DNA from: Escherichia coli
GTDB lineage: Bacteria; Pseudomonadota; Gammaproteobacteria; Enterobacterales; Enterobacteriaceae
NCBI RefSeq assembly: GCF_003018235.1
Contig: NZ_CP027437.1
Reading direction: 5' to 3' (one strand)
DNA: 64,000 nt
Part shown: piece by piece, positions 7,536-28,373 of the stretch
Position numbering within the stretch: the first letter of the stretch is position 1
Layout: the number at the start of each line of letters is the position of its first letter
Program-made: the position numbers and the translations under genes
The notes under the pieces: generated by a model
What the model was told of the DNA's origin: nothing
Databases searched by the model: none
What the model saw: only the letters and a program-made list of their open reading frames with translations

Positions 7536-7610
7536 GCGGTCATCGTATAATGGCTATTACCTCGGCCTTCCAGGCTGATGATGCGGGTTCGATTCCAGCT
7601 GGCCGCTCCA
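7536..7610 (+). tRNA. tRNA-Gly (anticodon TCC), glyT-like with one T-stem mismatch
   Basis: 75 nt, near-identical to E. coli glyT recalled from memory; anticodon loop CTTCCAG; acceptor stem with one G-U; T-stem GCGGG/CCAGC has a G-A mismatch. Confidence 0.7.
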
Positions 7611-8321: not shown

Positions 8322-10349
8322 ATGGCATTTAAACACTACGATCTGGTCTCTGCCAGCAGCGGTGATGAACTGCAAAAGAAACTGACAGAAAAAATAAATG
8401 AAGGGTGGCAGCCATACGGTTCGCCGCTTGTTTCGTATGACGATAACGGGATGAAAATTATTCAGGCCATTGCAGCAGAGGGTGATGTCAGGATCCCGGT
8501 TGAAACGCCTGATGATGGTGGTGATTCACCGGTCACAATGACCTCCGGTGCACCTGATTATTATTATGTTGTTGTGCTTGCCGGACAGTCCAACGGCATG
8601 GCCTACGGTGAGGGGCTTCCGTTACCGGACTCTTATGACCGCCCGGACCCGCGCATTAAACAGCTGGCACGCCGCAGTACAGTGACGCCGGGTGGGGACG
8701 CCTGTGCATACAATGATGTGATTCCGGCTGACCATTGTCTGCATGATGTACAGGATATGAGCGGTGTTAATCATCCGAAAGCGGACCTGAATAAGGGGCA
8801 GTATGGCTGTGTCAGTCAGGGGCTGCATATTGCCAAAAAACTGCTGTCGTATATCCCGCAGAATGCAGGGATACTTCTGGTGCCCTGCTGCCGTGGTGGT
8901 TCTGCATTCACCACCGGGGCTGACGGCACATTCAGTGAGGTCACCGGCGCATCCGCTGACGCTGCACGCTGGGGTGCCGGTAAACCCCTGTATCAGGACA
9001 TGGTCAGCCGGACAAAAGCGGCGCTGGCCAAGAACCCGAAAAACAGGCTGCTGGCGGTGGTATGGATGCAGGGCGAGGCAGACCTTGCGTCAGGCAGTCA
9101 GCAGCATAACGGGTTATTCACGGCCATGGTTCAGCAGTTCCGGACTGACCTGTCCTCACTTGCTGCGCAGTGCGTGAGTGGCAATGCTGCCACGGTGCCG
9201 TGGATTTGTGGTGATACCACGTATTACTGGAAGGCCACTTATGGCACACAGTATGAAGCCATTTATGGAGCCTATAAGAATCTGTCCGCACAGAATATTT
9301 TCTTTGTACCGTTCCTGACAGATGAAAACGGCGCAAACACGCCAACGAACCAGCCAGCGGAAGACCCGGATATTGTGGCTGTGGGGTATTACGGTGCGGC
9401 ATCACGAACACAGGCGAACTGGACGACAGCGCAACGTGACAGCCATTTCAGCACCTGGGCGCGTCGCGGCATCATTTCTGACCGCCTTGCGTCAGCTATT
9501 CTGGTGCACGCGGGACGTACGTCAGGTTTCATTACCGGTGAAGTTTCTTCTCCGGACACTGCATCCGGTGACGGTGGTTCGTCCACTGATGCGGGTACGG
9601 ATGCGGGGACCGGCACTTCCGGAACAGGAAGTGATGACGCTACCGGAACGACACCAGCCACCGCTGCCATTATTCTGAGTGCAGACGGAGGGGATGTTTC
9701 GGCACAGGGCTGGACGGTGGAAGGCACCACGGTGACCACCACGGCAAACACGGTGACTTCATCGGGTGAGGCGCTGGCGCAGAATGTGCTGAGTGTTCCG
9801 AAACAGAGCGGGGCAGCATGGAAGCTTGTTCATACCACCACAGATGAGCCAGCGGAACTGCTGAACAATGGCGGTGAGTTCCTGTGTCGTTTCCGTATCA
9901 CGGATACTGCCATTGCTGAGGGGCGTTATGCCTTTGGTCTTTACTGGCTTCCGGACGCACAGAAGATACCAGCCGGTGCGACATTCAATAAAACAGGAAG
10001 CGGGATGTCCCCGTCCATGCTCAACTTCTATGTCCAGACGGATGGCAGCAACATAAACCTGTTATCACACTGCAGTACGAAGAGTGCAGGGAATCTGAAG
10101 ATTGGCTCATTCGGTGCATTTAACAATGAATGGCATACCTTCCGTCTTCGCTACCATGGTGGCAATACGGCAAGAGCAACGGTGACGCTGGACAGTCAGG
10201 TGGTGGGAGATATAACGCTGTTATGTGCGCCGTCAGCGGCCAGTGCCGGTGACACTCTGTCGATGATAAGTATCACATCGGGTGATACATACAGTATTGA
10301 AGTGGAAAGCCTGAGTGTGACGGTGAACGGGGCTGCGGCAGCGGCGTGA
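8322..10349 (+). CDS. prophage sialate O-acetylesterase-like protein (NanS-p-like) with long C-terminal Thr/Gly-rich domain
   Basis: GGGGAGGAATA RBS then ATG; SASA-type catalytic motif VLAGQSNGMAYGEG; N-terminal region resembling DUF1737; position equivalent to the esterase gene downstream of stx in Stx phages. Confidence 0.6.
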   Translation: MAFKHYDLVSASSGDELQKKLTEKINEGWQPYGSPLVSYDDNGMKIIQAIAAEGDVRIPVETPDDGGDSPVTMTSGAPDYYYVVVLAGQSNGMAYGEGLPLPDSYDRPDPRIKQLARRSTVTPGGDACAYNDVIPADHCLHDVQDMSGVNHPKADLNKGQYGCVSQGLHIAKKLLSYIPQNAGILLVPCCRGGSAFTTGADGTFSEVTGASADAARWGAGKPLYQDMVSRTKAALAKNPKNRLLAVVWMQGEADLASGSQQHNGLFTAMVQQFRTDLSSLAAQCVSGNAATVPWICGDTTYYWKATYGTQYEAIYGAYKNLSAQNIFFVPFLTDENGANTPTNQPAEDPDIVAVGYYGAASRTQANWTTAQRDSHFSTWARRGIISDRLASAILVHAGRTSGFITGEVSSPDTASGDGGSSTDAGTDAGTGTSGTGSDDATGTTPATAAIILSADGGDVSAQGWTVEGTTVTTTANTVTSSGEALAQNVLSVPKQSGAAWKLVHTTTDEPAELLNNGGEFLCRFRITDTAIAEGRYAFGLYWLPDAQKIPAGATFNKTGSGMSPSMLNFYVQTDGSNINLLSHCSTKSAGNLKIGSFGAFNNEWHTFRLRYHGGNTARATVTLDSQVVGDITLLCAPSAASAGDTLSMISITSGDTYSIEVESLSVTVNGAAAAA

Positions 10350-13970: not shown

Positions 13971-14447
13971 ATGGACGGCGAGCTGAAAAATATGAAGTTC
14001 AATATTAATCAACTGGCATTCCTTTCAGGCCTGCACCGGCAGACTGTTGCCGCCAGAATGGCGGATGTTCCTCTTGCGCCAGGCAGTAATGAAAAGAAAA
14101 AACTTTATCTCCTGACGGATTTGATTAGTTCGTTACTGGAAAAACCACCCTCTTCCGAAGATGAGGAGATGGATCCACACGATCGCAAGGCATGGTATCA
14201 GTCCGAGCGCGAGCGCCTTAAATTTCAGCATGAAACTGTTCAGCTTGTGCCCGTCAGTGATGTCAGGCGGTCGTTTTCCGTCGTGGTGAAAGCCATTGTG
14301 CAGATACTGGAAACCTGGCCTGACAGGCTGGAAAGGGACAGGGGGTGGACTGCATCACAACTGAACGAAGTGCAGATCGTTGTTGATGAGATCCGTGACA
14401 CGCTGGAAAAGGCAGTGATTGCCTGCTGTGATGAGGCCGATATGTGA
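13971..14447 (+). CDS. terminase small subunit (Nu1-like)
   Basis: GGAGGAATAA RBS then ATG; N-terminal HTH like lambda Nu1; overlaps large subunit start. Confidence 0.7.
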   Translation: MDGELKNMKFNINQLAFLSGLHRQTVAARMADVPLAPGSNEKKKLYLLTDLISSLLEKPPSSEDEEMDPHDRKAWYQSERERLKFQHETVQLVPVSDVRRSFSVVVKAIVQILETWPDRLERDRGWTASQLNEVQIVVDEIRDTLEKAVIACCDEADM

Positions 14448-16567
14448 ATCAGGTGAACGAGAGCCACAGCCGCGCATCAGATATCTGGCGCGAAGTGGCC
14501 TCACTGTTTCGCCCACCAGGCCGGTTACCTGTGGCGGAAGCCATCAGGCGTTACATGCGGGTACCACGGGGAGCCAATACTTCCGGTCCGTGGGAGTCAT
14601 CGCTGACGCCCTACATGATTGACCCCATTAATACATTATCAGCCCGTGAATATGACGCGGTGGTGTTTGTGGGACCGGCGCGAACCGGGAAAACCGAAGG
14701 GCTGATTGATGGCTGGATTGTGTATGGCATTATCTGCGATCCGGCGGATATGCTGGTGGTGCAGATGACCGAAACAAAGGCGCGGGAGCATTCCAGAACG
14801 CGTCTTTCCAGGACATTTCGTCACAGTCCGGAGGTCAGTAAACGCCTCAGCCCTTCCCGTAATGACAACAACGTCCACGATAAAATGTTTCTTGACGGCT
14901 CCTTTCTGAAAATTGGCTGGCCGTCGATCACCGTATTTTCCTCCTCAGATTACCGCCGGGTGGCGCTGACGGACTATGACCGTTTTCCTGAGAACGTCGA
15001 CGGTGAAGGGGATGCCTTCACGCTGGCATCAAAGCGTACCACCACCTTTATGTCCTCAGGGATGACCCTGGTCGAAAGTTCACCCGGGCGGGATATCACC
15101 GACACCAAATGGCGATGTGGTGGTGCACATGAGGCTCCGCCAACAACGGGGATCCTGTCGCTGTATAACCGGGGAGACCGCCGCCGGTGGTACTGGCCGT
15201 GTCCGCACTGCGGGGAATATTTTCAGCCGGTGATGGATAACATGACCGGTTACCGTAATAACCCAGATTTTGTGGCTGCGGGTCAGGCTGCCCGTCTGAT
15301 GTGTCCGCACTGTCGCGGGCTGATTGCTCCGGAACAGAAACGCGAACTGAATAACAGGGGGATCTGGCTGCGGGAAGGTGAACGGGCGGCGGCGGACGGC
15401 AGCATCACCGGAACGCCACGAAATTCCAGGATTGCGTCATTCTGGATGGAGGGTCCGGCTGCGGCGTTTCAGACCTGGGAACAACTGATTTTTAAGCTGC
15501 TGGCGGCAGAAGAAGAGTATGAGCGAACCGGCAGTGAAGAGACCCTGAAAGCGGTGGTGAATACCGATATCGGACGGCCTTATCTGCCCCGTTCAGCCAC
15601 GGAACAGCGTAAAAGTGAACTGCTTGAACAGCGTGCTGAGCCGGTTCCCCGGCGGTGTGTGCCGGATGGGGTGCGCTTCATTGAGGCAACGGTTGACGTA
15701 CAGGGCGGTAAAAACCGCCGGTTTGTGGTGCAGATCACCGGATATGGAGAGCAGGGGGAACGCTGGATTGTTGATCGCTACAACATCCGGCAATCACTGC
15801 GATGCAGTCCCGGTGGTGAGAGCCTGCCGGTTGATCCGGCGGCCTATCCGGAAGACTGGGAACTGTTGCTGACAGATGTGTTTCACAAAACCTGGCCGCT
15901 GGCGTCTGATCCGGATGTGCATATGCGGCTCATGGCGATGGCCGTGGATACGGGCGGTGAAGCCGGGGTGACGGATAACGCCTATCGTTTCTGGCGGCAG
16001 TGCCGCCGGGAAGGGCTGGGTAACCGGGTGTTTCTGTTCAAGGGGGATGGTCTTCGTCGCGACAGACTGATTAACCGGACATTCCCGGATAACACCGGCA
16101 GAAGCGCCCGCCGGGCCAGGGCGAGCGGTGACGTTGCCCTGTGGCTGGTACAGACCGATGCGTTTAAGGACCGGGTGAATAATGCGCTGTGGCGTGACAC
16201 ACCGGGGCCGAACTATATCCACTTTCCTGACTGGCTGGGACGGTGGTTTTTCGATGAGCTGACCTATGAGGAGCGCGGCAGTGACGGAAAATGGCGAAAA
16301 CCGGGCAGAGGCGCTAACGAAGCGTTTGACCTGCTGGTCTATGCGGATGCGCTTGCCGTTCTGCATGGCTACGAGAAGATACGCTGGCCGTCTGCACCGG
16401 ACTGGGCGCAGCGGGAAACATGGCTTGTCGGTCCGGAGGAGCGTTCAGGGCTGACAACATCACGGGCGCTGCCGGAAAGGAAAGAAAAACGCCGTCGCAG
16501 GCAGGAAAAACTGCGCGCAGAGCGGGCAGAGGATAATCCGTGGATAACATCAGGAGGCTGGTTGTGA
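14444..16567 (+). CDS. terminase large subunit (lambda gpA-like)
   Basis: Walker A VVFVGPARTGKTEG; zinc-binding CPHCGE...CPHCRG as in lambda A; 707 aa; GTG start overlapping upstream stop. Confidence 0.9.
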   Translation: MNQVNESHSRASDIWREVASLFRPPGRLPVAEAIRRYMRVPRGANTSGPWESSLTPYMIDPINTLSAREYDAVVFVGPARTGKTEGLIDGWIVYGIICDPADMLVVQMTETKAREHSRTRLSRTFRHSPEVSKRLSPSRNDNNVHDKMFLDGSFLKIGWPSITVFSSSDYRRVALTDYDRFPENVDGEGDAFTLASKRTTTFMSSGMTLVESSPGRDITDTKWRCGGAHEAPPTTGILSLYNRGDRRRWYWPCPHCGEYFQPVMDNMTGYRNNPDFVAAGQAARLMCPHCRGLIAPEQKRELNNRGIWLREGERAAADGSITGTPRNSRIASFWMEGPAAAFQTWEQLIFKLLAAEEEYERTGSEETLKAVVNTDIGRPYLPRSATEQRKSELLEQRAEPVPRRCVPDGVRFIEATVDVQGGKNRRFVVQITGYGEQGERWIVDRYNIRQSLRCSPGGESLPVDPAAYPEDWELLLTDVFHKTWPLASDPDVHMRLMAMAVDTGGEAGVTDNAYRFWRQCRREGLGNRVFLFKGDGLRRDRLINRTFPDNTGRSARRARASGDVALWLVQTDAFKDRVNNALWRDTPGPNYIHFPDWLGRWFFDELTYEERGSDGKWRKPGRGANEAFDLLVYADALAVLHGYEKIRWPSAPDWAQRETWLVGPEERSGLTTSRALPERKEKRRRRQEKLRAERAEDNPWITSGGWL

Positions 16568-16587
16568 GTATTGATGATGTCAGGAAC

Positions 16588-16776
16588 ATGATACAGCGGT
16601 ACCGCGATGCGGAAATGGCGGTACTGGAAGGAAAATCCGTCACATTTAACGGGCAGCAACTGACGCTGGAAAGTCTGTCCCAGATCCGCGCCGGTCGGCA
16701 GGAGTGGGAGCGAAGACTTACGGCGATGGAGAACCGCAGACGGGGGAGTCCGGGGTTTAAACTGGTGAGGTTCTGA
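16588..16776 (+). CDS. head-tail joining protein (gpW-like)
   Basis: C-terminal RRRGSPGF resembles lambda W end; start uncertain (GTG 16564 or ATG 16588). Confidence 0.55.
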   Translation: MIQRYRDAEMAVLEGKSVTFNGQQLTLESLSQIRAGRQEWERRLTAMENRRRGSPGFKLVRF

Positions 16777-18278
16777 TGGCGATTAGTGATGATGTGATTG
16801 GTTTTTTCTCGCCCGGCTGGAAAGCGGCGCGATTACGCTCAAGGGCGTTAATTATGGCCTATGAGGCCGTGAAACCCACCCGCACGCACAAAGCCCGGCG
16901 GGAAAACCGTTCTGCCGATCAGCTCAGTAAATACGGTGCGGTTTCCCTGCGCGAGCAGGCCCGCTTTCTGGATATCAATCATGACCTGGTGATAGGCGTG
17001 TTTGACAAGCTGGAGGAGCGGGTGATTGGCGCCAGGGGGATCACCGTTGAACCTCATCCGGTGCTGAAAAACGGGAAGATTGCGGCGGAGCTGGCAGCGG
17101 ATATCCGGCGGCTGTGGGCGGAATGGTCTGTCAGTCCGGATGTGACCGGACAGTACACCCGTCCCATGCTTGAACGTCTGCTGCTGCGCACCTGGCTGCG
17201 GGACGGGGAAGTGTTTGCGCAGATGGTCAGTGGTGCGGCAGGCGGTCTTAAGCGGTCTGCCGGTGTGCCTTTCTGGCTTGAGGCGATGGAGCCGGATTTT
17301 GTGCCCATGCGCAGTGATGAATCTGCCGGACTGAATCAGGGCGTTTTTCTGGATGAGTGGGGCAGGCCGAAAAAATATCTGGTTTACAAAAATTATCCGG
17401 TTTCCGGGATACAGAGTGATACCAAAGAGATCGCCGCAGACAATATGGTGCACCTGAAGTTCACCCGTCGCCTGCACCAGACGCGTGGCACATCCATGCT
17501 GTCAGGGGTGCTGATGCGGATCAGTGCGCTTAAGGAATATGAAGACGCCGAGCTGACTTCGGCACGTGTTGCGGCGGCGCTGGGGCTGTATATCCGTAAA
17601 GGGGACGGACAGGACTATGAAGATCCGGGGGTGAAAGACAACGAACGTGAAGTGCATATCACCCCGGGCATTATCTATGACGATTTGCGCAAGGGTGAGG
17701 ATATCGGCATGGTCAAATCAGACCGTCCGAATCCCAATCTTGAGAATTTTCGTAACGGCCAGCTGCGTGCGGTGGCGGCAGGCAGTCGTCTGAGCTTTTC
17801 CAGTGCGGCGCGCAACTACAACGGCACCTACAGTGCCCAGCGGCAGGAGCTGGTGGAGTCCACCGATGGTTATTTTATCCTTCAGGACTGCTTTATTGGC
17901 GCGGTAACCCGTCCGGTATACCGGGCATGGCTGAATATGGCGGTTGCGGCAGGTCTGCTGAAAATCCCGACTGGCCTGGATATGAAGACGTTATATAACG
18001 CGACGTATTCCGGTCCGGTGATGCCGTGGATTGACCCGGTTAAGGAAGCTGAAGCCTGGCGGATACAGATCAGGGGTGGTGCCGCGACGGAATCCGACTG
18101 GATCCGCGCAAGCGGGCGCAACCCGGATGAGGTCAAACGTCGCCGTAAGGCTGAAACTGATGAAAACCGCAGGCTGGGGCTGGTCTTTGATACTGACCCC
18201 GTCAACGACAAAGGAGGCAACAGTGCCGGAACTGAACAACAGCGTCAGCAGGCCACCGACAGCCAGCATGAAGAATAA
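16776..18278 (+). CDS. portal protein (lambda gpB-like)
   Basis: 500-aa ORF directly after W with ATGA overlap; lambda-like head gene order. Confidence 0.8.
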   Translation: MAISDDVIGFFSPGWKAARLRSRALIMAYEAVKPTRTHKARRENRSADQLSKYGAVSLREQARFLDINHDLVIGVFDKLEERVIGARGITVEPHPVLKNGKIAAELAADIRRLWAEWSVSPDVTGQYTRPMLERLLLRTWLRDGEVFAQMVSGAAGGLKRSAGVPFWLEAMEPDFVPMRSDESAGLNQGVFLDEWGRPKKYLVYKNYPVSGIQSDTKEIAADNMVHLKFTRRLHQTRGTSMLSGVLMRISALKEYEDAELTSARVAAALGLYIRKGDGQDYEDPGVKDNEREVHITPGIIYDDLRKGEDIGMVKSDRPNPNLENFRNGQLRAVAAGSRLSFSSAARNYNGTYSAQRQELVESTDGYFILQDCFIGAVTRPVYRAWLNMAVAAGLLKIPTGLDMKTLYNATYSGPVMPWIDPVKEAEAWRIQIRGGAATESDWIRASGRNPDEVKRRRKAETDENRRLGLVFDTDPVNDKGGNSAGTEQQRQQATDSQHEE

Positions 18279-20238
18279 ATCCTGGTTCAGGATGCAGGCG
18301 GGTGGTCAGGGTGAGGCGGATATTTATATTTATGACGAGATTGGTTTCTGGGGGGTTACGGCGAAGCAGTTTATCAGTGATCTGAATGCGCTTGGCGACA
18401 TCACCCACATTAATCTCCATATCAATTCACCGGGTGGCGAGGTCTTTGAAGGCATCGCCATTTTTAATACCCTCAGAAATCACGGTGCAGGCATTACCGT
18501 GTATGTGGACGGGGTTGCCGCGTCGATGGCATCCCTGATTGCGATGGCCGGTGACACGGTCATTATGCCGGAAAATGCCTTCATGATGATCCATAAGCCC
18601 TGGGGGATCAGCGGTGGTGACGCGGAGAAAATGCGCACTTATGCCGATCGCCTCGACAAACTTGAGTCGGTTATGGTGCCGGTATATGCGCAGAAAACCG
18701 GGAAAACCACCGATGAAATTGCTGCCATGCTGGCGGATGAGACCTGGATGTCCGGTGCGGAATGTCTGGCACACGGATTTGCAGACCAGGTGACGCCAGC
18801 CGTTAAGGCAATGGCATGTATTCAGTCAAAACGTACAGAGGAATTTAAAAAGATGCCGGAATCCATCAGAAATATGATCACACAACCGTCTGACCGTACC
18901 CCGCGTGAGGCGACCACCACACAGGCAGTCACAGAACCCGCCCCGGCACCGGCAGCGCCAGATGAGGAGACCATCCGGGCCAGTGTACTGGCGGAGCAGA
19001 AGGCCCGTATGTCAGGCATTAACGATCTGTTTGCCATGTTTGGTGGTCGTTATCAGGCACTTCATGCGCAGTGTGTGGCCGATCCCGGCTGCTCGCTGGA
19101 GATGGCCCGAGAGCGTCTGCTGAATGAAATGGGTAAGGAGTCCTCGCCGACTAACAAAACCACACCGGCACATATTTATGCCGGAAACGGTAATTTTGTG
19201 GGTGACGGGATCCGTCAGGCGCTGATGGCCCGCGCCGGATTTGAGACTACGGAGAAGGATAATGCCTATAACGGGATGACCCTGCGTGAATGCGCCCGCA
19301 TGTCACTGACGGAGCGGGGGATCGGGGTGGCCAGTTACAACCCCATGCAGATGGTGGGGCTGGCGCTGACGCACAGCACCTCGGATTTTGGCAATATCCT
19401 GCTGGATGTGTCGAATAAGGGACTGATTCAGGGCTGGGAGGAATCAGAGGAAACCTTCCAGAAATGGACCCGCAAAGGTCGCCTGTCTGACTTCAAAACG
19501 GCATACCGTGTGGGGATGGGGGGCTTTGGTTCACTGCGTCAGGTGCGCGAAGGGGCAGAGTACAAGTACATCACCACCTCAGACCGCAGGGAAACCATCG
19601 CGCTGGCGACCTACGGGGAAATTTTCTCCATCACCCGTCAGGCCATTATCAATGATGACCTGAATATGCTGGTGGATGTCCCGATGAAGATGGGGCGTGC
19701 CGCGAAGGCAACGATTGGTGACCTGGTGTATGACGTGCTGACAAAAAATCCGAAACTGTCAGACGGCAAGGCGCTGTTCCATGCCGATCACCAGAATATT
19801 GCCACCGGCGGGATCTCCGTTTCCGGTCTGGATGCGGCACGTCAGATGATGCGTCTGCAGAAGGAGGGGAATCGTGCACTGAATATCCGTCCGGCCTTCA
19901 TGCTGGTACCGGTGGCGCTGGAGACGGTGGCAAACCAGACCATCAAATCGGCCAGTGTGAAAGGGGCGGATGCGAATGCCGGTGTCATTAACCCGATTCA
20001 GAACTTTGCCGAAGTGATTGCGGAAGCGCGTCTTGATGCGGCAGATCCGAAAACCTGGTATCTGGCGGCGGCACAGGGGACCGATACGATAGAAGTGGCC
20101 TGGCTGGATGGTGTGGACACGCCGTATATTGATCAGCAGGAAGGCTTCACCACTGACGGTATCGCCACAAAAATCCGTATTGATGCCGGTGTGGCACCGC
20201 TTGACTGGCGCGGACTGGTACGATCATCTGCTGCCTGA
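18268..20238 (+). CDS. prohead protease (ClpP/S14 family) fused to major capsid protein
   Basis: N-terminal ClpP-like region INSPGGEVFEGIAIFNTLRNH...ASMASLIAMAGD; about 450 aa C-terminal extension in capsid position. Confidence 0.7.
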   Translation: MKNKSWFRMQAGGQGEADIYIYDEIGFWGVTAKQFISDLNALGDITHINLHINSPGGEVFEGIAIFNTLRNHGAGITVYVDGVAASMASLIAMAGDTVIMPENAFMMIHKPWGISGGDAEKMRTYADRLDKLESVMVPVYAQKTGKTTDEIAAMLADETWMSGAECLAHGFADQVTPAVKAMACIQSKRTEEFKKMPESIRNMITQPSDRTPREATTTQAVTEPAPAPAAPDEETIRASVLAEQKARMSGINDLFAMFGGRYQALHAQCVADPGCSLEMARERLLNEMGKESSPTNKTTPAHIYAGNGNFVGDGIRQALMARAGFETTEKDNAYNGMTLRECARMSLTERGIGVASYNPMQMVGLALTHSTSDFGNILLDVSNKGLIQGWEESEETFQKWTRKGRLSDFKTAYRVGMGGFGSLRQVREGAEYKYITTSDRRETIALATYGEIFSITRQAIINDDLNMLVDVPMKMGRAAKATIGDLVYDVLTKNPKLSDGKALFHADHQNIATGGISVSGLDAARQMMRLQKEGNRALNIRPAFMLVPVALETVANQTIKSASVKGADANAGVINPIQNFAEVIAEARLDAADPKTWYLAAAQGTDTIEVAWLDGVDTPYIDQQEGFTTDGIATKIRIDAGVAPLDWRGLVRSSAA

Positions 20239-20325
20239 TAACCGGCCCGACACAATCACTGCCCGTAAGGGCTTTTTTTATGCCTGAAAACAGCCCCGCC
20301 GGGGGCTGTCCGGAGATACAGCATT

Positions 20326-20652
20326 ATGGCGAAAAATTTTGTACAGGACGGCACCACCATTGAACTGGTGAATGCCGGGGATCAGACCATTCTGAGCGGT
20401 GCCGCTGTGGTGGTCGGCAGCATGGTGGCGGTGGCCATTACCGATATTCCTGCCGGGGAAACCGGTGACGGGTTCGCAGAAGGCGTGTTCCTGCTGCCAA
20501 AACAGTCAGTTGATGATATTCCGCAGGGGACGGTGGTTTATCTGAAGGATGGCCTTGTGCAGCCTGCGGCGGATGGTGCAGTGGCGGCAGGGGTGGCATG
20601 GGAACATGCGACGGCAGGCAGCGACACAGTGGCGGTCAGAATCAATGCCTGA
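20326..20652 (+). CDS. small head-associated protein (DUF2190-like, from memory)
   Basis: 108 aa Gly/Ala/Val-rich ORF after capsid gene; GGAGA RBS. Confidence 0.45.
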   Translation: MAKNFVQDGTTIELVNAGDQTILSGAAVVVGSMVAVAITDIPAGETGDGFAEGVFLLPKQSVDDIPQGTVVYLKDGLVQPAADGAVAAGVAWEHATAGSDTVAVRINA

Positions 20653-20926
20653 TTTGCTTTCACGGATGTGCCGCCATATGGATCTGGCGACGGTGCGCAT
20701 GATGGGAAAAACGGCGGAGATTAACGGCGTCAGTTATGACGTGATACCGGAGTATGAGTCCGCTGATATGGGGGCGCTTTCCGGCAGTCAGTTGTCACTG
20801 GTGGTGTTTTCAGCGCAGTACCGGCCTGCCCGCGATGATGTGGTTGTGTTTGACGGTCGCTCACTGGTGGTGACCCGTTATGACACTTACAACGGTAAAC
20901 CCCGGATTTTTGTCGAACAGGAGTAA
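20645..20926 (+). CDS. head-tail adaptor/head completion protein (93 aa)
   Basis: Position between capsid and tail genes; ATG in ORF 20549 frame. Confidence 0.4.
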   Translation: MPDLLSRMCRHMDLATVRMMGKTAEINGVSYDVIPEYESADMGALSGSQLSLVVFSAQYRPARDDVVVFDGRSLVVTRYDTYNGKPRIFVEQE

Positions 20927-20928: not shown

Positions 20929-21552
20929 ATGGCGATAAAAGGTCTGGCGCAGGCCATGAAAAATCTGGATGCCATTGATCGCCGTGCCGTTCCCCGTGCT
21001 GCTGCCACGACGCTTAACCGTGTGGCGGCGTCCGTTATTGCGAAAACAGCCTCTTCGGTTGCCCGGGAGCTGGCGGTCCCACGACGTCTTATCCGTGAGC
21101 GTATCCGCCTGCAACAGGCCAGCGCAGACAGGGTTTATGCGAAGGTCATCATCAACACCGGTAATCTGCCCGCCATAAAACTGGGGACGGCCAGCGTGCG
21201 GCTTTCCCGCAGAAAGCGGCGAAAGAAAGGCGAGCGATCGGTCACGAAAGGCGGTGGCAGCGTGCTGATTGTCGGGAAACGGCGGATCCCGAATGCCTTT
21301 ATTACCCGGCTGGAAAATGGCCGGTGGCATGTGATGCAGCGTATGCCGTGGGCGTCGTCGTCAACCGGTGTTGACCGTAAGGGCAGGCCTGCGCGTTATC
21401 GTCTGCCGATTGATGTGGTGAAAATCCCGACGGTAAAACCGCTGACAGAAACCTTTGAGCGTGAACGTGAGCGAATGTACCGGGAGAAATTACCGGAACA
21501 GATGATGAAAGCCATGACGCAGCAGTTGCGTCTGGTCATGAAACGAAAATGA
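20929..21552 (+). CDS. tail completion protein (gpZ-like)
   Basis: Position and size; AGGAG RBS. Confidence 0.5.
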   Translation: MAIKGLAQAMKNLDAIDRRAVPRAAATTLNRVAASVIAKTASSVARELAVPRRLIRERIRLQQASADRVYAKVIINTGNLPAIKLGTASVRLSRRKRRKKGERSVTKGGGSVLIVGKRRIPNAFITRLENGRWHVMQRMPWASSSTGVDRKGRPARYRLPIDVVKIPTVKPLTETFERERERMYREKLPEQMMKAMTQQLRLVMKRK

Positions 21553-21563
21553 CAGGGGGTGGC

Positions 21564-21962
21564 ATGAAACACCGTGAGATACGGGCGGCAATACTGTCTG
21601 CCCTGAAGGCAAATATTGCTGAGCGGGTGACCTGGTTTGACGGGCGACCTGTTTTTATTGACGAGCAGGAGCTTCCGGCAGTGGCGGTCTACCTGACTGA
21701 CGCGTCAGCGGCTGACGAGTTTGTGGATGAGGATACCTGGGAGGCGGTACTGCATGTCGAAGTGTTTCTCAGGGCAAAAGAGACGGACTCCGTACTGGAT
21801 ACATGGATGGAAGAAAAAATTTTTCCGGCGCTGGAAGGCGTTCCCGGTCTCAGTGCACTGCTGCTGAAAATGAATCTTCAGGGGTACGACTACAGCCGTG
21901 ATGATGAATTCATGATGTGGGGATCGGCAGATCTCCGGTGGAACATTACCTACGAAATGTGA
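21564..21962 (+). CDS. minor tail protein (gpU-like, tail terminator)
   Basis: Position immediately before major tail gene; 132 aa; AGGGGG RBS. Confidence 0.55.
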
Positions 21963-21969
21963 GGACGAT

Positions 21970-22728
21970 ATGTCAACACCTAATCCTCTTGAGCCGGTAA
22001 AAGGCTCCGGCACCACACTCTGGCTTTATTCCGGAAATGGTGATGCTTATGCAAATCCACTGTCTGATGATGACTGGACGCGACTGGCAAAAATCAAGGA
22101 ACTGACGCCGGGCGATATGACGGCAGAATCCTATGACGATAACTACCTGGATGATGAGGATGCCGACTGGGTTTCCACCGGGCAGGGACAGAAATCGGCG
22201 GGTGATACCAGTTTCACCCTGGCCTGGAAGCCCGGTGAGGCAGGCCAGCAGGCGCTGTTGCGGTGGTTTGATGAGGGCGATACCCGTGCCTATAAAATCC
22301 GTTTTCCCAATGGCACGGTCGATGTGTTCCGTGGCTGGGTGAGCAGTATTGGCAAGGCCGTCACCGCAAAAGAAGTGATCACCCGTACGATAAAAGTCAC
22401 CAATATTGGTCGTCCGTCGCTGGCGGAAGACAGCGGAACCATCACGCCGGTGACGGGGATCACCGTCACACCGGCCACGGCTTCTGTTGAGGCGGGGAAA
22501 ACGGTGGAACTGACGGTGGCCGTTCAGCCGGATACGGCATCGGACAAAACCTTCCGGGTGTCATCTGACCACAACAATGTGGCGACGGTGACCGTGAAGG
22601 ATAACGTCATCACGGTGAAAGGGGTGGCAAAAGGTACCGCGCTTATCCCGGTCATGAGTAATGGTGGCGCTTTCGCTGCCGTGGCCACCGTAACGGTCAC
22701 AACACCTGCAGCACAGCCTGCCACTTAA
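21970..22728 (+). CDS. major tail protein (gpV-like) with C-terminal Ig-like domain
   Basis: 252 aa, lambda V-like; C-terminal Big_2-like segment. Confidence 0.75.
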
Positions 22729-22746
22729 TTTTCCGGGAGTGAATTC

Positions 22747-23163
22747 ATGTTTCTGAAAACGGAACCGTTTGAATATAACGGGCAGACTGTCACGCTCAGC
22801 GAACTGTCCGCCCTGCAGCGCCTCGAGTATCTGGCCTGGGTGAAGGAGAAGGAAGAACAGCGGGGGGAGGGTGTCAGTGAACAGCAGGCGCTCACTGACA
22901 TCATCAGCGAAGGTGCCCTGCTGGTGGCCATGTCGCTCTGGCATCACCATGAGCTGAACGGAGCGTCATCCTCACTGCGTGAAGAGACGGACAGGCTCAT
23001 GCAGGAAGTCCTGACCTCCTGGCCGGTGGAAGCCATCGCCGCAGGCCGGAACGTGGTGGCACGTCTGAGTGGTATGTCGGCTCCGGCAGGTGAAAAATCC
23101 CCCGCTCAGGGGGGTAAAACAGACGAACCGGTAACGGCAAAAAAGCGTACGAAGGGGAGCTGA
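22747..23163 (+). CDS. tail assembly chaperone G
   Basis: 138 aa, lambda G position; ends ...VTAKKRTKGS. Confidence 0.7.
   Translation: MFLKTEPFEYNGQTVTLSELSALQRLEYLAWVKEKEEQRGEGVSEQQALTDIISEGALLVAMSLWHHHELNGASSSLREETDRLMQEVLTSWPVEAIAAGRNVVARLSGMSAPAGEKSPAQGGKTDEPVTAKKRTKGS
23139..23145 (+). other. programmed -1 ribosomal frameshift slippery heptamer A_AAA_AAG giving the G-T fusion
   Basis: Heptamer in G frame 7 codons before stop; -1 frame stays open to 23471. Confidence 0.6.
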
Positions 23164-23460
23164 TTTTTGCCCTGCAACTGGCGCGCGAGATGGGCCGTCC
23201 TGACTGGCGTGCCATGCTGGCCGGGATGTCATCAACCGAGTATTCCGACTGGCGTCATTTTTACCGCACGCATTATTTTCAGGATGCACAACTGGATATG
23301 CATTTTGCCGGGCTGACGTATGCCGTACTCAGCCTGTTTTTTGCCGATCCTGATATGAGTCCGTCTGATTTCAGCCTGCTGAACCGGCGTGGTGCTGAAG
23401 AAGAGCCTGAAGATGATGTGCTGATGTCGGTATCAGAAGGTATAGCAGGAGGTGTCCGCT

Positions 23461-26058
23461 ATGGCGGGTAACTTTGCAGATCTGACAGCAATTCTGACCC
23501 TGGATTCCACCCGCTTTTCTGAAGAAATGGGGCGGGTGAAAAAAGAGCTTGGCGAAACCAGCTCACTGGCAGACACGATGTCAGGCAAGGTCAGCCAGTC
23601 CCTGAATAAATCCGCAGAGGCCATTGAGCAGAGTCTGAGCCGTCAGGCGCTGGCCGCACAGAAAGCGGGGATTTCCGTCGGGCAGTATAAAGCCGCCATG
23701 CGTATGCTGCCTGCACAGTTCACGGATGTCGCCACGCAGCTTGCAGGCGGGCAAAGTCCGTGGCTGATCATGCTGCAACAGGGGGGCCAGGTGAAGGACT
23801 CCTTTGGCGGGATAATCCCTATGTTCAGGAGCCTTGCCGGTGCTGTCACCCTGCCGATGGCCGGGCTCACCTCGCTGGCGGTGGCGACAGGTGCGCTGGT
23901 GTATGCCTGGTACAAGGGTGATACCGTCCTGTCTGAATTTAATAAAACGCTGGTTCTTTCCGGTAATCAGTCGGGACTGACGGCAGATCGTATGTTGTCC
24001 CTGACCAGAGCCGGGCAGGCGGCAGGGCTGACGTTTAACCAGACCAGTGAGGCACTGACGGCGCTGGTGAATGCCGGTGTGCGTGGTGGTGAGCAGTTTG
24101 AAGCCATCAGCCAGAGTGTGGCACGTTTCTCCGCCGCATCGGGTGTGGAGGTGGACAAGGTTGCTGAAGCCTTCGGGAAGCTGACCACCGACCCGACGTC
24201 GGGGCTGACGGCGATGGCGCACCAGTTCCATAACGTGACGGCGGAGCAGATTGCGTATGTTGCTCAGTTGCAGCGTTCCGGCGATGAAGCCGGGGCATTG
24301 CAGGCGGCGAACGAGGCCGCAACGAAAGGGTTTGATGACCAGACCCGCCGCCTGAAAGAAAACATGGGGACACTGGAGACCTGGGCAGACAGGACAGCAC
24401 GGGCATTCAAATCCATGTGGGATGCGGTGCTGGATATTGGTCGTCCTGATACCGCGCAGGAGATGCTGATTAAGGCAGAGGCCGCGTTTAAGAAAGCGGA
24501 CGATATCTGGAATCTGCGCAAGGATGATTATTTTGTTAACGATGAAGCGCGGGCGCGTTACTGGGATGATCGTGAAAAGGCCCGTCTTGCGCTTGAAGCC
24601 GCCAGAAAGAAGGCAGAACAGCAGAGTCAACAGGACAAAAATGCGCAGCAGCAGAGCGATACCGAAGCGTCACGGCTGAAATATACCGAAGAGGCGCAGA
24701 AGGCTTACGAACGGCTGCAGACGCCGCTGGAAAAATACACCGCCCGTCAGGAGGAGCTGAATAAAGCCCTGAAGGCCGGGAAAATCCTGCAGGCGGACTA
24801 CAACACGCTGATGGCGGCGGCGAAAAAGGACTATGAGTCGACGCTGAAAAAGCCGAAACAGTCAGGCGTGAAAGTGTCAGCAGGCGATCGTCAGGAGGAC
24901 AACACCCGTACAGCGCTGCTGGCGCTGCAGACTGAGCTGCGGACACTTCAGGCCCACGCCGGGGCGAATGAAAAAATCAGCCAGCAGCGTCGGGAACTGT
25001 GGAAGGCGGAAAGTCAGTATGCGGTACTGGCGGAGGCGGCACAACGTCGCCAGTTATCCGCACAGGAGAAATCCCTGCTGGCGCATAAAGACGAGACGCT
25101 GGAGTACAGACGCCAGCTGGCTGACCTGGGCGACAAGGTTGAATACCAGAAACGGCTGAACGAGCTGGCAGACCAGGCGGAGAAATTTGCACAGCAGCAG
25201 CGGGCAAAACAGGCTGCCATCAGTGCAAAAGGCAGGGGGCTGACTGACAGGCAGGCGCAGCGGGAGTCAGAAGAGCAGCGGTTGCGCGAGGTGTATGGTG
25301 ATAATCCGCAGGCGCTGGTGAAGGCAACAGGTGCGCTGAAACAGACATGGGCTTCGGAAGACCAGCTGAATGGCAGCTGGATGGCCGGGCTTCAGTCGGG
25401 CTGGAGCCAGTGGGCTGAGAGTGCGATGGACAGTTTTTCGCAGGTGAAAAGTGTGTCCATGCAGACCTTTGACGGGATTGCGCAGAATATGGCAGCAATG
25501 CTGACCGGCAGTGAACAGAACTGGCGCAGCTTCACCCGTTCGGTGTTGTCGATGCTGACAGAAATTCTGCTGAAGCAGGCCATGGCCGGAATGGTCGGAA
25601 GTGCGATCAGTGCCATTGGCAGCGCTTTCGGCGGTGGTGCGTCGGCTTCAGCCGGTACGGCCATTCAGGCTGCGGCGGCGAACTTCCATTTTGCGACCGG
25701 AGGATTTACGGGCACGGGTGGCAAATATGAGCCTGCGGGGATTGTTCACCGCGGGGAGTTTGTCTTCACGAAGGAGGCAACCAGCCGGATTGGTGTCGGT
25801 AACCTGTACCGCCTGATGCGGGGCTATGCGGAAGGTGGTTATGTGGGCGGTGCCGGAAGTCCGGCGCAGATGCGGCGGGCGGAAGGTATCCGGTTTGAGC
25901 AGAACAACAGCGTGGTGATTCAGAACGACGGTACCAACGGGCAGGCGGGACCGCAACTGATGAAGGCGGTGTATGACATGGCCCGCAAAGGGGCGCAGGA
26001 TGAGATTCAGGCGCAGATGCGTGATGGCGGCGTATTTTCCGGAGGAGGTGGACGATGA
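23461..26058 (+). CDS. tail tape measure protein (lambda gpH-like)
   Basis: Near-colinear match to lambda H recalled from memory; AGGAGG RBS. Confidence 0.9.
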   Translation: MAGNFADLTAILTLDSTRFSEEMGRVKKELGETSSLADTMSGKVSQSLNKSAEAIEQSLSRQALAAQKAGISVGQYKAAMRMLPAQFTDVATQLAGGQSPWLIMLQQGGQVKDSFGGIIPMFRSLAGAVTLPMAGLTSLAVATGALVYAWYKGDTVLSEFNKTLVLSGNQSGLTADRMLSLTRAGQAAGLTFNQTSEALTALVNAGVRGGEQFEAISQSVARFSAASGVEVDKVAEAFGKLTTDPTSGLTAMAHQFHNVTAEQIAYVAQLQRSGDEAGALQAANEAATKGFDDQTRRLKENMGTLETWADRTARAFKSMWDAVLDIGRPDTAQEMLIKAEAAFKKADDIWNLRKDDYFVNDEARARYWDDREKARLALEAARKKAEQQSQQDKNAQQQSDTEASRLKYTEEAQKAYERLQTPLEKYTARQEELNKALKAGKILQADYNTLMAAAKKDYESTLKKPKQSGVKVSAGDRQEDNTRTALLALQTELRTLQAHAGANEKISQQRRELWKAESQYAVLAEAAQRRQLSAQEKSLLAHKDETLEYRRQLADLGDKVEYQKRLNELADQAEKFAQQQRAKQAAISAKGRGLTDRQAQRESEEQRLREVYGDNPQALVKATGALKQTWASEDQLNGSWMAGLQSGWSQWAESAMDSFSQVKSVSMQTFDGIAQNMAAMLTGSEQNWRSFTRSVLSMLTEILLKQAMAGMVGSAISAIGSAFGGGASASAGTAIQAAAANFHFATGGFTGTGGKYEPAGIVHRGEFVFTKEATSRIGVGNLYRLMRGYAEGGYVGGAGSPAQMRRAEGIRFEQNNSVVIQNDGTNGQAGPQLMKAVYDMARKGAQDEIQAQMRDGGVFSGGGGR

Positions 26059-26384
26059 AAACCTTCCGCTGGAAAGTGAAGCCGGATATGGAGGTCAGTT
26101 CGCAGCCATCGGTACGGGAGGTGCGCTTTGGTGATGGTTATTCCCAGCGTGCGCCTGCCGGGCTGAATGCCGACCTGAAAACGTACAGCGTGACGCTTTC
26201 TGTCTCCCGGGAGGAGGCCCGGTATCTGGAAGCATTCCTGGCAGAGCACGGAGGCTGGAAGGCGTTTCTGTGGACGCCGCCTTATGGTTACAGGCAGATA
26301 AAGGTGACCTGCGCCAGGTGGTCATCCCGGGTGGGAATGCTGCGAGTGGAATTCAGCGCGGAGTTTAAACAGGTGGTGAACTGA
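26055..26384 (+). CDS. minor tail protein M
   Basis: 109 aa as in lambda M; GGAGGAGG RBS; ATGA overlap with H. Confidence 0.8.
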   Translation: MKTFRWKVKPDMEVSSQPSVREVRFGDGYSQRAPAGLNADLKTYSVTLSVSREEARYLEAFLAEHGGWKAFLWTPPYGYRQIKVTCARWSSRVGMLRVEFSAEFKQVVN

Positions 26385-27082
26385 TGCAGGAAATTCACGA
26401 AGAGAGCCTGAACGAGTCGGTAAAATCAGAGCAGTCAGCCCGCGTGGTGCTGTGGGAAATCGACCTGACAGCGGTCGGTGGTGAACGGTATTTTTTCTGT
26501 AATGAGCTGAATGAAAAAGGGGAGCCTGTGACCTGGCAGGGCAGGGAGTATCAGGCATACCCGATTGACGGCAGCGGTTTTGAGATGAACGGAAAGGGCA
26601 GCAGTGCCCGCCCGTCACTGACGGTGTCCAATCTTTTCGGGCTGGTCACCGGCATGGCGGAGGACCTGCAGAGCCTGGTGGGGGCCACAGTGGTCCGCCG
26701 CCGGGTGTATGCCCGTTTTCTGGATGCGGTGAATTTTGTGGCGGGAAATCCGGAGGCTGACCCGGAGCAGGAGCTGACGGACCGCTGGGTGGTGGAGCAG
26801 ATGTCAGAGCTCACAGCCATGAAGGCCTCGTTTGTGCTGGCGACACCGACGGAGACGGACGGGGCGCTGTTTCCCGGTCGCATCATGCTGGCGAACACCT
26901 GCACCTGGGATTACCGGGGGGAGGAGTGCGGTTATGACGGTCCGGCAGTCGCAGATGAATATGACCAGCCCACATCTGATATCGCGAAGGACAAGTGCAG
27001 TAAATGCCTGCGCGGGTGTGAGCTGCGCGGGAATGTGGCAAACGGCGGTTTTTTCCTTTCCATCAATAAGCTTTCGCAGTGA
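26384..27082 (+). CDS. minor tail protein L
   Basis: 232 aa as in lambda L; C-terminal Cys cluster CTWDYRGEECGY...CSKCLRGC. Confidence 0.8.
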   Translation: MQEIHEESLNESVKSEQSARVVLWEIDLTAVGGERYFFCNELNEKGEPVTWQGREYQAYPIDGSGFEMNGKGSSARPSLTVSNLFGLVTGMAEDLQSLVGATVVRRRVYARFLDAVNFVAGNPEADPEQELTDRWVVEQMSELTAMKASFVLATPTETDGALFPGRIMLANTCTWDYRGEECGYDGPAVADEYDQPTSDIAKDKCSKCLRGCELRGNVANGGFFLSINKLSQ

Positions 27083-27831
27083 TTATCATGAAACAGACAG
27101 AATCAGACATTCTGGCGCATGCCCGGCGGTGTGCGCCAGCGGAGTCGTGCGGCTTCGTGATAACCACGCCGGAGGGTGAACGGTACCAGCCGTGTGTGAA
27201 TATTTCCGCAGAGCCGGAGGCGTATTTTCGTATTGCTCCGGAAGACTGGCTGCGGGCGAAGATGTCGGGGGAGATTGTGGCGCTGGTCCACAGTCATCCC
27301 GGCGGCCTGGCCTGGCTGAGTGAGGCAGACCGGCGTCTGCAGATAAAAAGCGCACTGTCCTGGTGGCTGGTCTGCCGGGGAGACATTCATAAATTCCGCT
27401 GTGTTCCACACCTGACCGGGCGGCGTTTTGAGCACGGGGTGACGGACTGTTACACGCTGTTCCGGGATGCATACCATCTGGCGGGGATTGAGATGCCGGA
27501 TTTTCACCGCGAGGATGAGTGGTGGCGAAACGGTCAGAACCTGTACCTGGACAATATGGAGGCAACGGGCTTTTACCGGGTGCCCCTGTCCTCTGCACAG
27601 GCGGGCGATATTCTGCTGTGCTGCTTTGGTTCATCGGTACCGAACCATGCCGCGGTTTACTGTGGCAACGGCGAGCTGCTTCACCATATACCTGAACAAC
27701 TGAGTAAACGGGAGAGGTATTCCGAAAAATGGCAACGACGAACGCATTCAGTCTGGCGTCACCGCCACTGGCACGCATCTGCCTTCACGGGGATTTACAA
27801 CGATTTGGCCGCCGCATCAGCCTGTATGTGA
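27079..27831 (+). CDS. tail tip assembly protein K (JAB/MPN plus NlpC/P60-like)
   Basis: VALVHSHPGG JAB/MPN motif; overlaps L and I; start GTG 27079 or ATG 27088. Confidence 0.7.
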   Translation: MIIMKQTESDILAHARRCAPAESCGFVITTPEGERYQPCVNISAEPEAYFRIAPEDWLRAKMSGEIVALVHSHPGGLAWLSEADRRLQIKSALSWWLVCRGDIHKFRCVPHLTGRRFEHGVTDCYTLFRDAYHLAGIEMPDFHREDEWWRNGQNLYLDNMEATGFYRVPLSSAQAGDILLCCFGSSVPNHAAVYCGNGELLHHIPEQLSKRERYSEKWQRRTHSVWRHRHWHASAFTGIYNDLAAASACM

Positions 27832-28373
27832 ACACGGCAGCGGAGGCCATCCGTGCCCTGTCGTTACAGGTGCCCGGTTTTCGCCGTCAGATGAACGAAG
27901 GCTGGTACCGGGTGCGTATTGCCGGTGAGGATACCTCGCCGGAACAGATAATGACACGACTGCATGAGCCGTTGAGCCACGGGGATATCATTCATCTGAT
28001 CCCCCGGACCGAAGGTGCCAAAAGCGGTGGTGTTTTTCAGGCGGTGCTGGGAGCTGCACTGGTTGTTGCCTCCATCTGGATGCCGGGTATCGGTATTGCT
28101 GCCAGCAACATTATGTTTTCCATGGGGGCAGCAATGGCGCTGGGGGGTGTCGCACAACTGCTGGCCCCGAAGGCAAAGACGCCGGAGTACAGAAGCACGG
28201 ATAACGGTAAACAGAACACGTATTTCTCCTCACTGGACAACATGATTGCCCAGGGCAACCCGATGCCGGTGCCTTATGGTGAGATGCTGGTGGGTTCACG
28301 ACGGATATCCCAGGACATCAGCACCCGGGATGAAGGCGGTGACGGAAAAGTGGTGGTTATCGGTCGGGGGTGA
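27729..28373 (+). CDS. tail assembly protein I
   Basis: Strong match to lambda I recalled from memory (ARICLHGDLQRFGRRI, GAKSGGVFQ, DNGKQNTYFSSLDNM). Confidence 0.85.
   Translation: MATTNAFSLASPPLARICLHGDLQRFGRRISLYVNTAAEAIRALSLQVPGFRRQMNEGWYRVRIAGEDTSPEQIMTRLHEPLSHGDIIHLIPRTEGAKSGGVFQAVLGAALVVASIWMPGIGIAASNIMFSMGAAMALGGVAQLLAPKAKTPEYRSTDNGKQNTYFSSLDNMIAQGNPMPVPYGEMLVGSRRISQDISTRDEGGDGKVVVIGRG

Follow-up and report, generated by a model that had tools for sequence, protein, structure and literature searches.

A fused ClpP-like prohead protease and major capsid protein gene in an Escherichia coli prophage compared with Gifsy-2 and lambda

The tripartite capsid gene of the Salmonella phage Gifsy-2 (STM1034.3n, YP_001700678), whose product is laid out as a ClpP-like protease, a central segment and a capsid protein, has reportedly been described experimentally. 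Papers citing that work (Effantin et al., 2010, Virology 402:355) present the gene as a fusion of prohead protease and coat protein and give the Gifsy-2 capsid a trimeric cement protein at its 3-fold axes. In the late operon of phage lambda, the terminase, adaptor and portal genes are followed at the equivalent position by the separate head genes C (an S49 protease), Nu3 (the scaffold, nested in C), D (decoration) and E (capsid), and lambda likewise uses a separate small decoration protein. In HK97 a scaffold-like segment is fused N-terminal to the capsid protein (gp5) and removed by the phage protease. The HK97 protease (gp4) is itself the product of a separate gene and is of the herpesvirus-like S78/U35 type, not ClpP-like; the HK97 shell is stabilized by covalent cross-links and not by a decoration protein. 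Fusions of protease to capsid are also found in the Rhodobacter phage RcBaka and in the actinobacteriophage 'major capsid and protease fusion protein', a term used routinely when Arthrobacter and Microbacterium phage genomes are announced.

The DNA analyzed here (the window) is a stretch of 64,000 nucleotides from Escherichia coli (assembly GCF_003018235.1, contig NZ_CP027437.1). It very probably contains the head gene of a lambdoid prophage of the Gifsy-2, mEp460 and long-tailed Stx-phage type, encoding a 71-kDa polypeptide of four parts: a protease (Ser86, His109, Glu158), a linker, a scaffold-like segment and an HK97-fold capsid protein. The product aligns end to end with that of the Gifsy-2 tripartite gene (668 columns, 61% identity, 77% positives) and falls 40 aa short of the annotated length in Gifsy-2, where a different start was annotated and the linker is longer. 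The gene is genuine but unremarkable for a prophage head, with an architecture that is already known, and it carries little weight as a discovery: NCBIfam and PHROG both have families for the fusion, and the annotation of thousands of enterobacterial genomes already includes it. Coordinates of all features are collected in Table 1.

Table 1. Features of the packaging, head and tail region in window coordinates; percentages are identities to the phage named.
Feature	Coordinates	Strand	Evidence
Small terminase, DUF1441	13971-14447	+	Pfam, PHROG; 34.6% Gifsy-2
Large terminase, gpA family	14444-16567	+	Pfam, PHROG; 66.6% (67%) Gifsy-2, 23.7% lambda A
Head-tail adaptor, W-like position	16588-16776	+	PHROG 118; 56% Gifsy-2; start from PGAP annotation of a relative
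Portal protein	16776-18278	+	TIGR01539 portal_lambda, 439.6 bits; 63% Gifsy-2, 22.8% lambda B
Possible 15-codon N-terminal extension	18223-18267	+	In-frame GTG after AAGGAGG; 671-aa database versions
Fused prohead protease / scaffold-like / major capsid gene	18268-20238	+	ORF, NF045540, PHROG 133, Gifsy-2 identity
ClpP-like serine protease domain, aa 1-180	18268-18807	+	Pfam, fold, motifs
Low-complexity Pro/Ala/Thr-rich linker, disordered, aa 181-232	18808-18963	+	pLDDT, alignment
Three-helix scaffold-like segment, aa 233-289	18964-19134	+	AlphaFold2, PHROG
Disordered segment, aa 290-309	19135-19194	+	pLDDT <50 at residues 296-306
HK97-fold major capsid domain, aa about 310-656, 37.7 kDa	19195-20235	+	Capsid HMM match, HK97 fold
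Head decoration/cement protein, 108 aa	20326-20652	+	Phage_cement_2, PHROG 122; 52% Gifsy-2 STM1034
Head-completion/connector, STM1035 family, 93 aa	20645-20926	+	PF13856 'Gifsy-2', PHROG 153; 36% Gifsy-2 STM1035
Lambda-type tail module Z, U, V, G, T, H, M, L, K, I, J	20929-31606	+	50-86% lambda

One reading frame for protease and capsid protein

The initial annotation had described a single long ORF of 657 aa, with an N-terminal ClpP/S14-type protease and a capsid protein in the same frame. The ORF is indeed uninterrupted, with 1971 nt encoding 656 aa (71.2 kDa) followed by the stop codon at 20236-20238, which had been counted in the earlier length; the frame is open from 18031. Both domain assignments were likewise borne out, the first by HMM scan and fold and the second by a Phage_capsid_4 match and the HK97 fold. 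The whole protein scores 996.3 bits against NCBIfam NF045540 (ClpP-like prohead protease/major capsid protein fusion protein; cut-off 475), far beyond chance, with residues 17-654 aligned to positions 2-651 of a 652-position profile, and protease and HK97-fold capsid lie in one reading frame, as this family requires. PHROG 133 is matched over the full length with 1137 bits. NF045541 (scaf_prot_MCP2), in contrast, gives 421.5 bits, below its cut-off of 525, and is matched by residues 206-654 only; the protease part of that family is therefore different. RcBaka, at 34% identity, is similarly matched by residues 236-654.

A frameshift or sequencing error, raised at the outset as what could have joined separate protease and capsid genes, has practically no probability. 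Many phages do encode a ClpP-like protease alone, and most of the 1783 matching phage records stop after the first 200 or so residues. Against an artefact, 1936 complete E. coli genomes share the same uninterrupted fused frame (60-98% nucleotide identity), as do Gifsy-2, mEp460, Stx phages and a Pseudomonas phage (57% amino-acid identity), and the frame is conserved across >100 distinct 50%-identity clusters; most of the best 150 representatives, one per cluster, are 640-750 aa long and align without a break over residues about 3-654. The identical protein (P0001), seen on 24 contigs, already stands in NCBI and UniRef as a fusion protein, and curated full-length family models exist. Inside the gene the only other + strand ORF of at least 60 aa is one of 72 aa (18905-19123), so that nothing suggests a split gene.

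Of 5426 complete E. coli genomes, 2070 (about 38%) contain the gene, with a fusion-protein annotation on all matches listed. Comparison with the heads of Stx phages, which had been proposed as a check, showed that long-tailed Stx phages and VT1-Sakai carry the fusion gene. The E. coli lambdoid members of NF045540 and PHROG 133 (mEp460, CP-1639, VT1-Sakai and long-tailed Stx2a and Stx2d phages) share 77-98% nucleotide identity and the same synteny with the window, from which they show no substantive difference; the choice of start codon alone varies.

In the window the start codon is ambiguous among GTG 18223, ATG 18268 and ATG 18292. The coordinates used here begin at ATG 18268, the start also chosen by NCBI PGAP in the relative NZ_CP076709 (98.3% identical); from this start the fusion gene of the window overlaps the end of the portal gene by 11 nt, stop codon included. 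GTG 18223 is preceded by AAGGAGG (18211-18217) at 5-nt spacing and would give a product of 671 aa, and ATG 18292 one of 648 aa. Public databases contain 648-, 656- and 671-aa versions, P0002 being an example of the last.

Domain organization of the fusion protein

The AlphaFold2 model of the whole fusion protein (pLDDT 86) has clear domain boundaries. The N-terminal domain has the ClpP alpha/beta fold and matches Pfam CLP_protease at residues 31-176 (E=1.8e-36). Catalytic Ser86 (codon 18523-18525) lies in GVAASMAS, which aligns to the ClpP motif GxAASMG, and catalytic His109 (18592-18594) lies in MIHKPWG, which aligns to MIHQP; both are invariant in an alignment of 47 diverse homologues. The third catalytic column holds Glu158 (18739-18741), as opposed to the Asp of canonical ClpP, and among the homologues this column is E in 38, D in five and another residue in four. 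The adjoining Asp157 is not conserved among the 47. On the strength of this alignment the fusion family may use Ser-His-Glu instead of the canonical Ser-His-Asp.

Several sources name such proteins 'ATP-dependent Clp protease proteolytic subunit', and with the fold being that of ClpP one could read the protein as a cellular ClpP paralogue, a subunit of the ATP-dependent Clp protease with a C-terminal extension, that has no place in the virion. The chance of this is negligible: the protein scores 66.3 bits against the cellular equivalog TIGR00493 (cut-off 308.6) and is also far below the cut-offs of the other ClpP models, but passes the phage-specific domain model NF045542, and its gene sits between portal and decoration genes in a prophage late operon.

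Following the protease, the linker shows the lowest conservation and the most indels in the 47-sequence alignment, and its residues 210-227 have pLDDT <50 in the AlphaFold2 model. The scaffold-like segment is modelled as helices 233-256, 263-271 and 277-289 with pLDDT of about 90; Arg247 within it is invariant. Its only PHROG matches are to the central part of the fusion families PHROG 133, 4523 and 94. The segment is a putative scaffold or delta domain, which the protease would remove as in HK97. The disordered segment that follows (aa 290-309) is a putative zone of maturation cleavage that would free the capsid domain, its position being guessed from predicted disorder.

The C-terminal domain shares the HK97 fold and matches Pfam Phage_capsid_4 at residues 358-653 (E=5.2e-57), a core of 32.5 kDa; searched alone against the sequences of solved structures, the C-terminal half gives only weak, Mu gpT-like matches (E=5e-4 to 2e-3). 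Deposited names such as 'putative protease/scaffold protein', 'head maturation protease' and 'Clp protease ClpP' would fit a protein that is protease and scaffold only, with the capsid protein encoded elsewhere. This is highly improbable, given that the capsid family match covers the C-terminal 300 residues and that the portal-to-tail interval otherwise holds just the 108-aa decoration protein and the 93-aa connector; ORF and Pfam analysis found no other capsid-protein candidate between portal and tail genes. Rather, the older names 'Clp protease ClpP', 'protease/scaffold protein' and 'Nu3' conceal the fact that the gene codes for the major capsid protein.

Predicted head assembly

Processing, stoichiometry, scaffold role and decoration binding are all inferred here by homology to Gifsy-2 and the general HK97 pathway. 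About 415 copies of the fusion protein would form a T=7 procapsid on the portal, its interior holding the protease and scaffold parts. The tethered proteases would be activated at high local concentration and would remove everything N-terminal to the capsid domain, probably cutting in the disordered stretch around residues 290-310. The fragments would exit the shell, after which terminase would package the DNA; the shell would expand, and trimers of the separate 108-aa decoration protein would bind and stabilize it, as gpD does in lambda. By a rough volume estimate, the internal part (33.5 kDa) in 415 copies would occupy about one third of the procapsid (assumed inner radius 23 nm). The full complement of tethered protease would thus fit in the shell, and a second product is not required.

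Such a second product would arise if the locus, like lambda C/Nu3, contained a nested gene, with an internal start at Met196 (ATG 18853) yielding a 461-aa linker-scaffold-capsid protein without protease, so that protease would be sub-stoichiometric. Lambda offers the precedent, Nu3 being nested in frame inside C, and the window, mEp460 and Gifsy-2 all have an in-frame ATG at the equivalent position, preceded by GAGGA at a distance of 9-10 nt. However, the Met196 column is Met in just 6 of the 47 diverse family members, the spacing of GAGGA is long for a ribosome-binding site, and the conservation of GAGGA is not independent evidence because it comes from conserved Glu-Glu codons. Another internal start, Met248, has a weak Shine-Dalgarno-like motif, as Met196 does, but is missing in other homologues, and was rejected. 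Since Met248 is absent elsewhere and Met196 is found in so few members, a nested gene is considered unlikely; were it real, translation would set how much protease each procapsid receives, in place of a fixed one per capsid subunit.

Neighboring head genes and the joint with a lambda-type tail

The neighbors of the fusion gene have equivalents in the same order in Gifsy-2, and the packaging and head genes around it are 35-67% identical to their Gifsy-2 counterparts (Table 1); the order portal, fusion, decoration, connector is common to Gifsy-2, mEp460 and the E. coli relatives. The 108-aa decoration protein matches Pfam Phage_cement_2 (E=1.9e-19) and PHROG 122 'head decoration' (E=1.1e-36), and its AlphaFold2 model (pLDDT 92) has fold matches to the decoration proteins of phiCD508, phi29 gp8.5, Sf11, T1 and HFTV1; its overlap with the lambda gpD fold is no more than partial (TM about 0.4 over 59 aligned columns). 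Its gene, directly downstream of the fusion gene, is the functional counterpart of lambda D. The separate decoration protein is thus kept, and in this head lambda-like cementing goes together with a fused precursor that exceeds the HK97 arrangement. The 93-aa connector, which has no lambda match, is the last gene of the Gifsy-2-type block.

The initial annotation had set this head apart from that of lambda while regarding terminase, portal and tail as lambda-like, and direct comparison modifies that picture. Lambda C, Nu3, D, E, Fi and Fii have no BLASTP match at E<=0.01, which upholds the claimed absence of C, Nu3 and E homologues; protease, scaffold and capsid, separate in lambda as C, Nu3 and E, are here one gene, and the protease is ClpP/S14-like where lambda C is S49. 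For D, the absence of similarity stands, but a separate decoration gene replaces D functionally. Lambda proteins searched by tblastn match only at A and B (weakly) and from Z to J, and by BLAST neither the small terminase nor the W-like adaptor matches lambda, Nu1 and W included. Accordingly, the tail is lambda-like as claimed, whereas terminase and portal resemble lambda A and B at family level only.

The tail module, with Pfam matches to Minor_tail_Z, Phage_tail_U and Phage_TTP_12, begins 3 nt after the end of the Gifsy-2-type block, and its H is 83% identical to that of lambda and 25% to that of Gifsy-2. Module exchange had been claimed within the structural region and the mosaic is real, but because the whole packaging/head block is Gifsy-2-like and the tail lambda-like, the joint is placed at the head/tail boundary near 20926/20929 and not around the head gene. 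A Gifsy-2-type packaging/head block combined with a lambda-type tail block is textbook lambdoid mosaicism. Within the tail, the J homologue aligns to 999 of the 1132 residues of lambda J, and T is without the last 37 residues of lambda T. Judged from these sequences the prophage may be defective, and with J and T shortened the fusion gene may therefore never be used in the present host.

Between the fusion and decoration genes a consensus scan found no terminator, and the gap folds no better than shuffled sequence (z=-0.65). By eye, this gap shows two hairpins, one of 4 bp (GC) followed by T7 at 20261-20279 and one of 8 bp at 20290-20308.

The fused reading frame and its product

The initial annotation described a single 657-aa ORF, which is correct as to the single ORF but not as to its length, since 657 includes the stop codon: counted from ATG 18268, the gene has 1971 nt and encodes 656 residues, followed by its stop. 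The + strand reading frame is uninterrupted between 18031 and its stop codon (20236-20238), and the gene contains only one other + strand ORF of at least 60 aa (72 aa, 18905-19123); there is therefore no hint of two genes fused by error. ATG 18268, whose ribosome-binding site is weak and which overlaps with the stop of the portal gene, is also the PGAP start in the closest complete genome, that of E. coli O158:H23 CFIAFB20140388 (98.3% identical). Further in-frame starts are plausible at GTG 18223, located 5 nt after a strong AAGGAGG (18211-18217) and giving a product of 671 aa, and at ATG 18292 (648 aa). Versions of 648, 656 and 671 aa are all deposited in public databases, and the annotated start of the Gifsy-2 counterpart is likewise farther upstream.

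HMM scans with Pfam, NCBIfam and PHROG agree with the proposed joining of an N-terminal ClpP/S14 protease to a capsid protein in one ORF. In Pfam the matches are CLP_protease (residues 31-176, E=1.8e-36), Phage_capsid_4 (residues 358-653, E=5.2e-57) and, more weakly, Mu-like gpT; NCBIfam NF045540 is matched with 996 bits (cut-off 475), residues 17-654 falling on profile positions 2-651 of 652, and PHROG 133 is matched over the full length (1137 bits). The protein also passes the cut-off of the domain model NF045542 ("head maturation protease, ClpP-related"). Identity as a cellular ClpP was rejected, as all ClpP equivalogs score far under their cut-offs (e.g. TIGR00493, 66 vs 308.6 bits).

An AlphaFold2 model prepared from an alignment of 47 diverse homologues (mean pLDDT 86) comprises a confident alpha/beta domain (residues 1-180), a Pro/Ala/Thr-rich linker (181-232; pLDDT <50 at 210-227), three confident helices (233-289), a second disordered stretch (296-306) and a confident C-terminal domain (~310-656). 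Ser86 (GVAASMAS) and His109 (MIHKPWG), which align with the catalytic serine and histidine of ClpP, are invariant in 47/47 homologues; Glu158 stands at the position of the catalytic aspartate, where 43 of the 47 have an acidic residue.

Distribution and earlier descriptions

No frameshift or sequencing error separating protease from capsid was found; the frame is kept in 2070 of 5426 complete E. coli genomes, with a match spanning at least 80% of the gene in 1936 of these, and all E. coli genome matches listed are annotated as a fusion protein. At the nucleotide level 28 phage records match, including CP-1639, VT1-Sakai, mEp460 and several Stx2a and Stx2d phages. At the protein level, coverage of at least 80% is reached in 80 phage records, among them a Pseudomonas phage with 57% identity. 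Among 1.84 billion cluster representatives 8009 proteins reach E<=1e-30; the best 150 of these each come from a separate 50%-identity cluster, and most are 640-750 aa long and align over residues ~3-654 in one stretch. An identical 656-aa protein (24 contigs) is held under the fusion name in NCBI and UniRef. An artefactual fusion was rejected, given the same frame across E. coli genomes, phages and separate 50%-identity clusters.

The gene is already known, and is ordinary among E. coli lambdoid prophages; genome announcements of actinobacteriophages also use "major capsid and protease fusion protein" routinely in annotation. With STM1034.3n of the Salmonella phage Gifsy-2 the protein shares 61% identity along its entire length. 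In papers citing Effantin et al., the Gifsy-2 gene is given as one in which prohead protease and coat protein are fused, and the Gifsy-2 capsid as bearing a trimeric cement protein at its 3-fold axes. Effantin et al. are said to have described for Gifsy-2 an N-terminus resembling ClpP, a possibly scaffolding central region of ~200 residues and a C-terminal capsid protein, and reportedly used the HK97 capsid protein and gpD of lambda to model its T=7 shell.

In the closest relative (NZ_CP076709.1) the same fusion-protein accession occurs in two prophages, at ~1.167 Mb and 2.98 Mb (hits H1 and H78), and a third place matches the gene; the head module is duplicated inside one genome. In the Stx1 phage VT1-Sakai (AP000400.1, hit H20) the match is in two pieces with IS629 annotated within the matched span, and the head gene of this prophage appears disrupted.

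By homology, the 71-kDa precursor would form a T=7 procapsid by assembly on the portal, its 33.5-kDa protease-linker-helical part lying inside; 415 copies of this part would occupy ~1/3 of the shell volume, assuming an inner radius of 23 nm. The tethered proteases would then cut off all parts N-terminal to the capsid domain, probably within the disordered segment 290-310, and a ~33-38-kDa capsid protein would remain; DNA packaging by terminase, shell expansion and binding of decoration trimers would follow. A nested, protease-less product in the style of lambda C/Nu3, starting at Met196 (ATG 18853), is conceivable but improbable: GAGGA precedes this codon by 9-10 nt in the window, mEp460 and Gifsy-2 alike, but it derives from conserved Glu codons, and only 6/47 diverse homologues have Met in that column.

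The head/tail joint and the decoration gene

The region was compared gene by gene with lambda and with Gifsy-2 (see table). Judged by these identities, the packaging and head block is of Gifsy-2 type and the tail block of lambda type, and the mosaic joint lies at the head/tail boundary, not at a head-gene swap within a lambda-like region as initially proposed. Of the genes then called lambda-like, those of the tail are so (50-86%), but terminase and portal share only Pfam/TIGRFAM families with lambda.

Features of the window, with amino acid identity (%) to lambda and Gifsy-2 proteins
Feature	Position	Lambda	Gifsy-2
P2-type replication gene (Phage_GPA; replication endonuclease)	1204-3126
Q antiterminator, lambda-type	4603-5319
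DNA methylase	5863-6930
tRNA-Arg(TCT) and tRNA-Gly(TCC), downstream of Q	7458-7610
707-aa esterase-like gene: DUF1737, SASA (sialate O-acetylesterase-like), DUF6645	8226-10349
Packaging and head block	13971-20926
Small terminase		no match	35
Large terminase (A)		23.7	66.6
Adaptor		no match	56
Portal (B)		22.8	63
Fusion gene	18268-20238 (+)	no match	61
Decoration protein, 108 aa	20326-20652	no match	52
93-aa putative connector	20645-20926	no match	36
Tail block	from 20929
U		54	55
V		72	54
G		50	34
T	23148-23471	78	44
H	from 23461	83	25
M		84
L		79
K		86
I		61
J	28619-31606	77

A separate lambda D gene was initially considered missing. The 108-aa ORF matches Pfam Phage_cement_2 (DUF2190) and PHROG 122 "head decoration", and is named "capsid cement protein" in some NCBI records; its AlphaFold2 model (pLDDT 92) has an all-beta fold that matches the capsid decoration proteins of phiCD508, phi29 (gp8.5 base), Sf11, T1, HFTV1 and Pam3 with query TM 0.5-0.78. 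The window therefore encodes a functional counterpart of D, in a gene of its own. Lambda gpD and P21 SHP match the model only partially (59 columns, TM ~0.40-0.45), and the protein is possibly a remote structural relative of lambda D.

Two hairpins lie in the 87-nt gap that separates the fusion gene from the decoration gene: a short GC one with T7 behind it (20261-20279) and one of 8 bp (20290-20308). In mEp460 a rho-independent terminator is annotated at the equivalent spot; 20261-20308 may act as a partial terminator and so determine how much capsid protein is made relative to decoration protein. A consensus scan of the gap detected no terminator, and it folds no better than shuffled sequence.

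Public names of the 93-aa gene ('DNA breaking-rejoining protein' in PGAP, 'ATP-binding sugar transporter from pro-phage' for PF13856 and 'minor tail protein' for PHROG 153) are misleading; from position and size its product is most likely a head-completion or connector protein. In the tail block, the tail chaperone T lacks the C-terminal 37 residues of its lambda counterpart (alignment to residues 2-107 of 144), and the J homologue aligns to residues 1-999 of 1132 only. Both are flagged incomplete by PGAP in the closest relative, and the prophage tail may be defective.

Prophage surroundings

The prophage is a hybrid. In the window the P2-type replication endonuclease gene neighbours the lambda-type Q antiterminator and the DNA methylase, and the close relative has in addition an annotated P2-like integrase and Cox protein (locus L005, 2752-4715) and, at the far end, an ogr/Delta zinc-finger gene; P2-like early genes therefore drive a lambdoid late operon. 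In place and gene type, the tRNA pair and the 707-aa gene correspond to what adjoins stx in Stx phages; the ORFs scanned here included no stx gene. The lysis cassette follows the 707-aa gene, then the head and tail blocks; the rest of the window, from ~36 kb, is chromosomal E. coli sequence with raiA, clpB, an rRNA operon, pssA and patZ.
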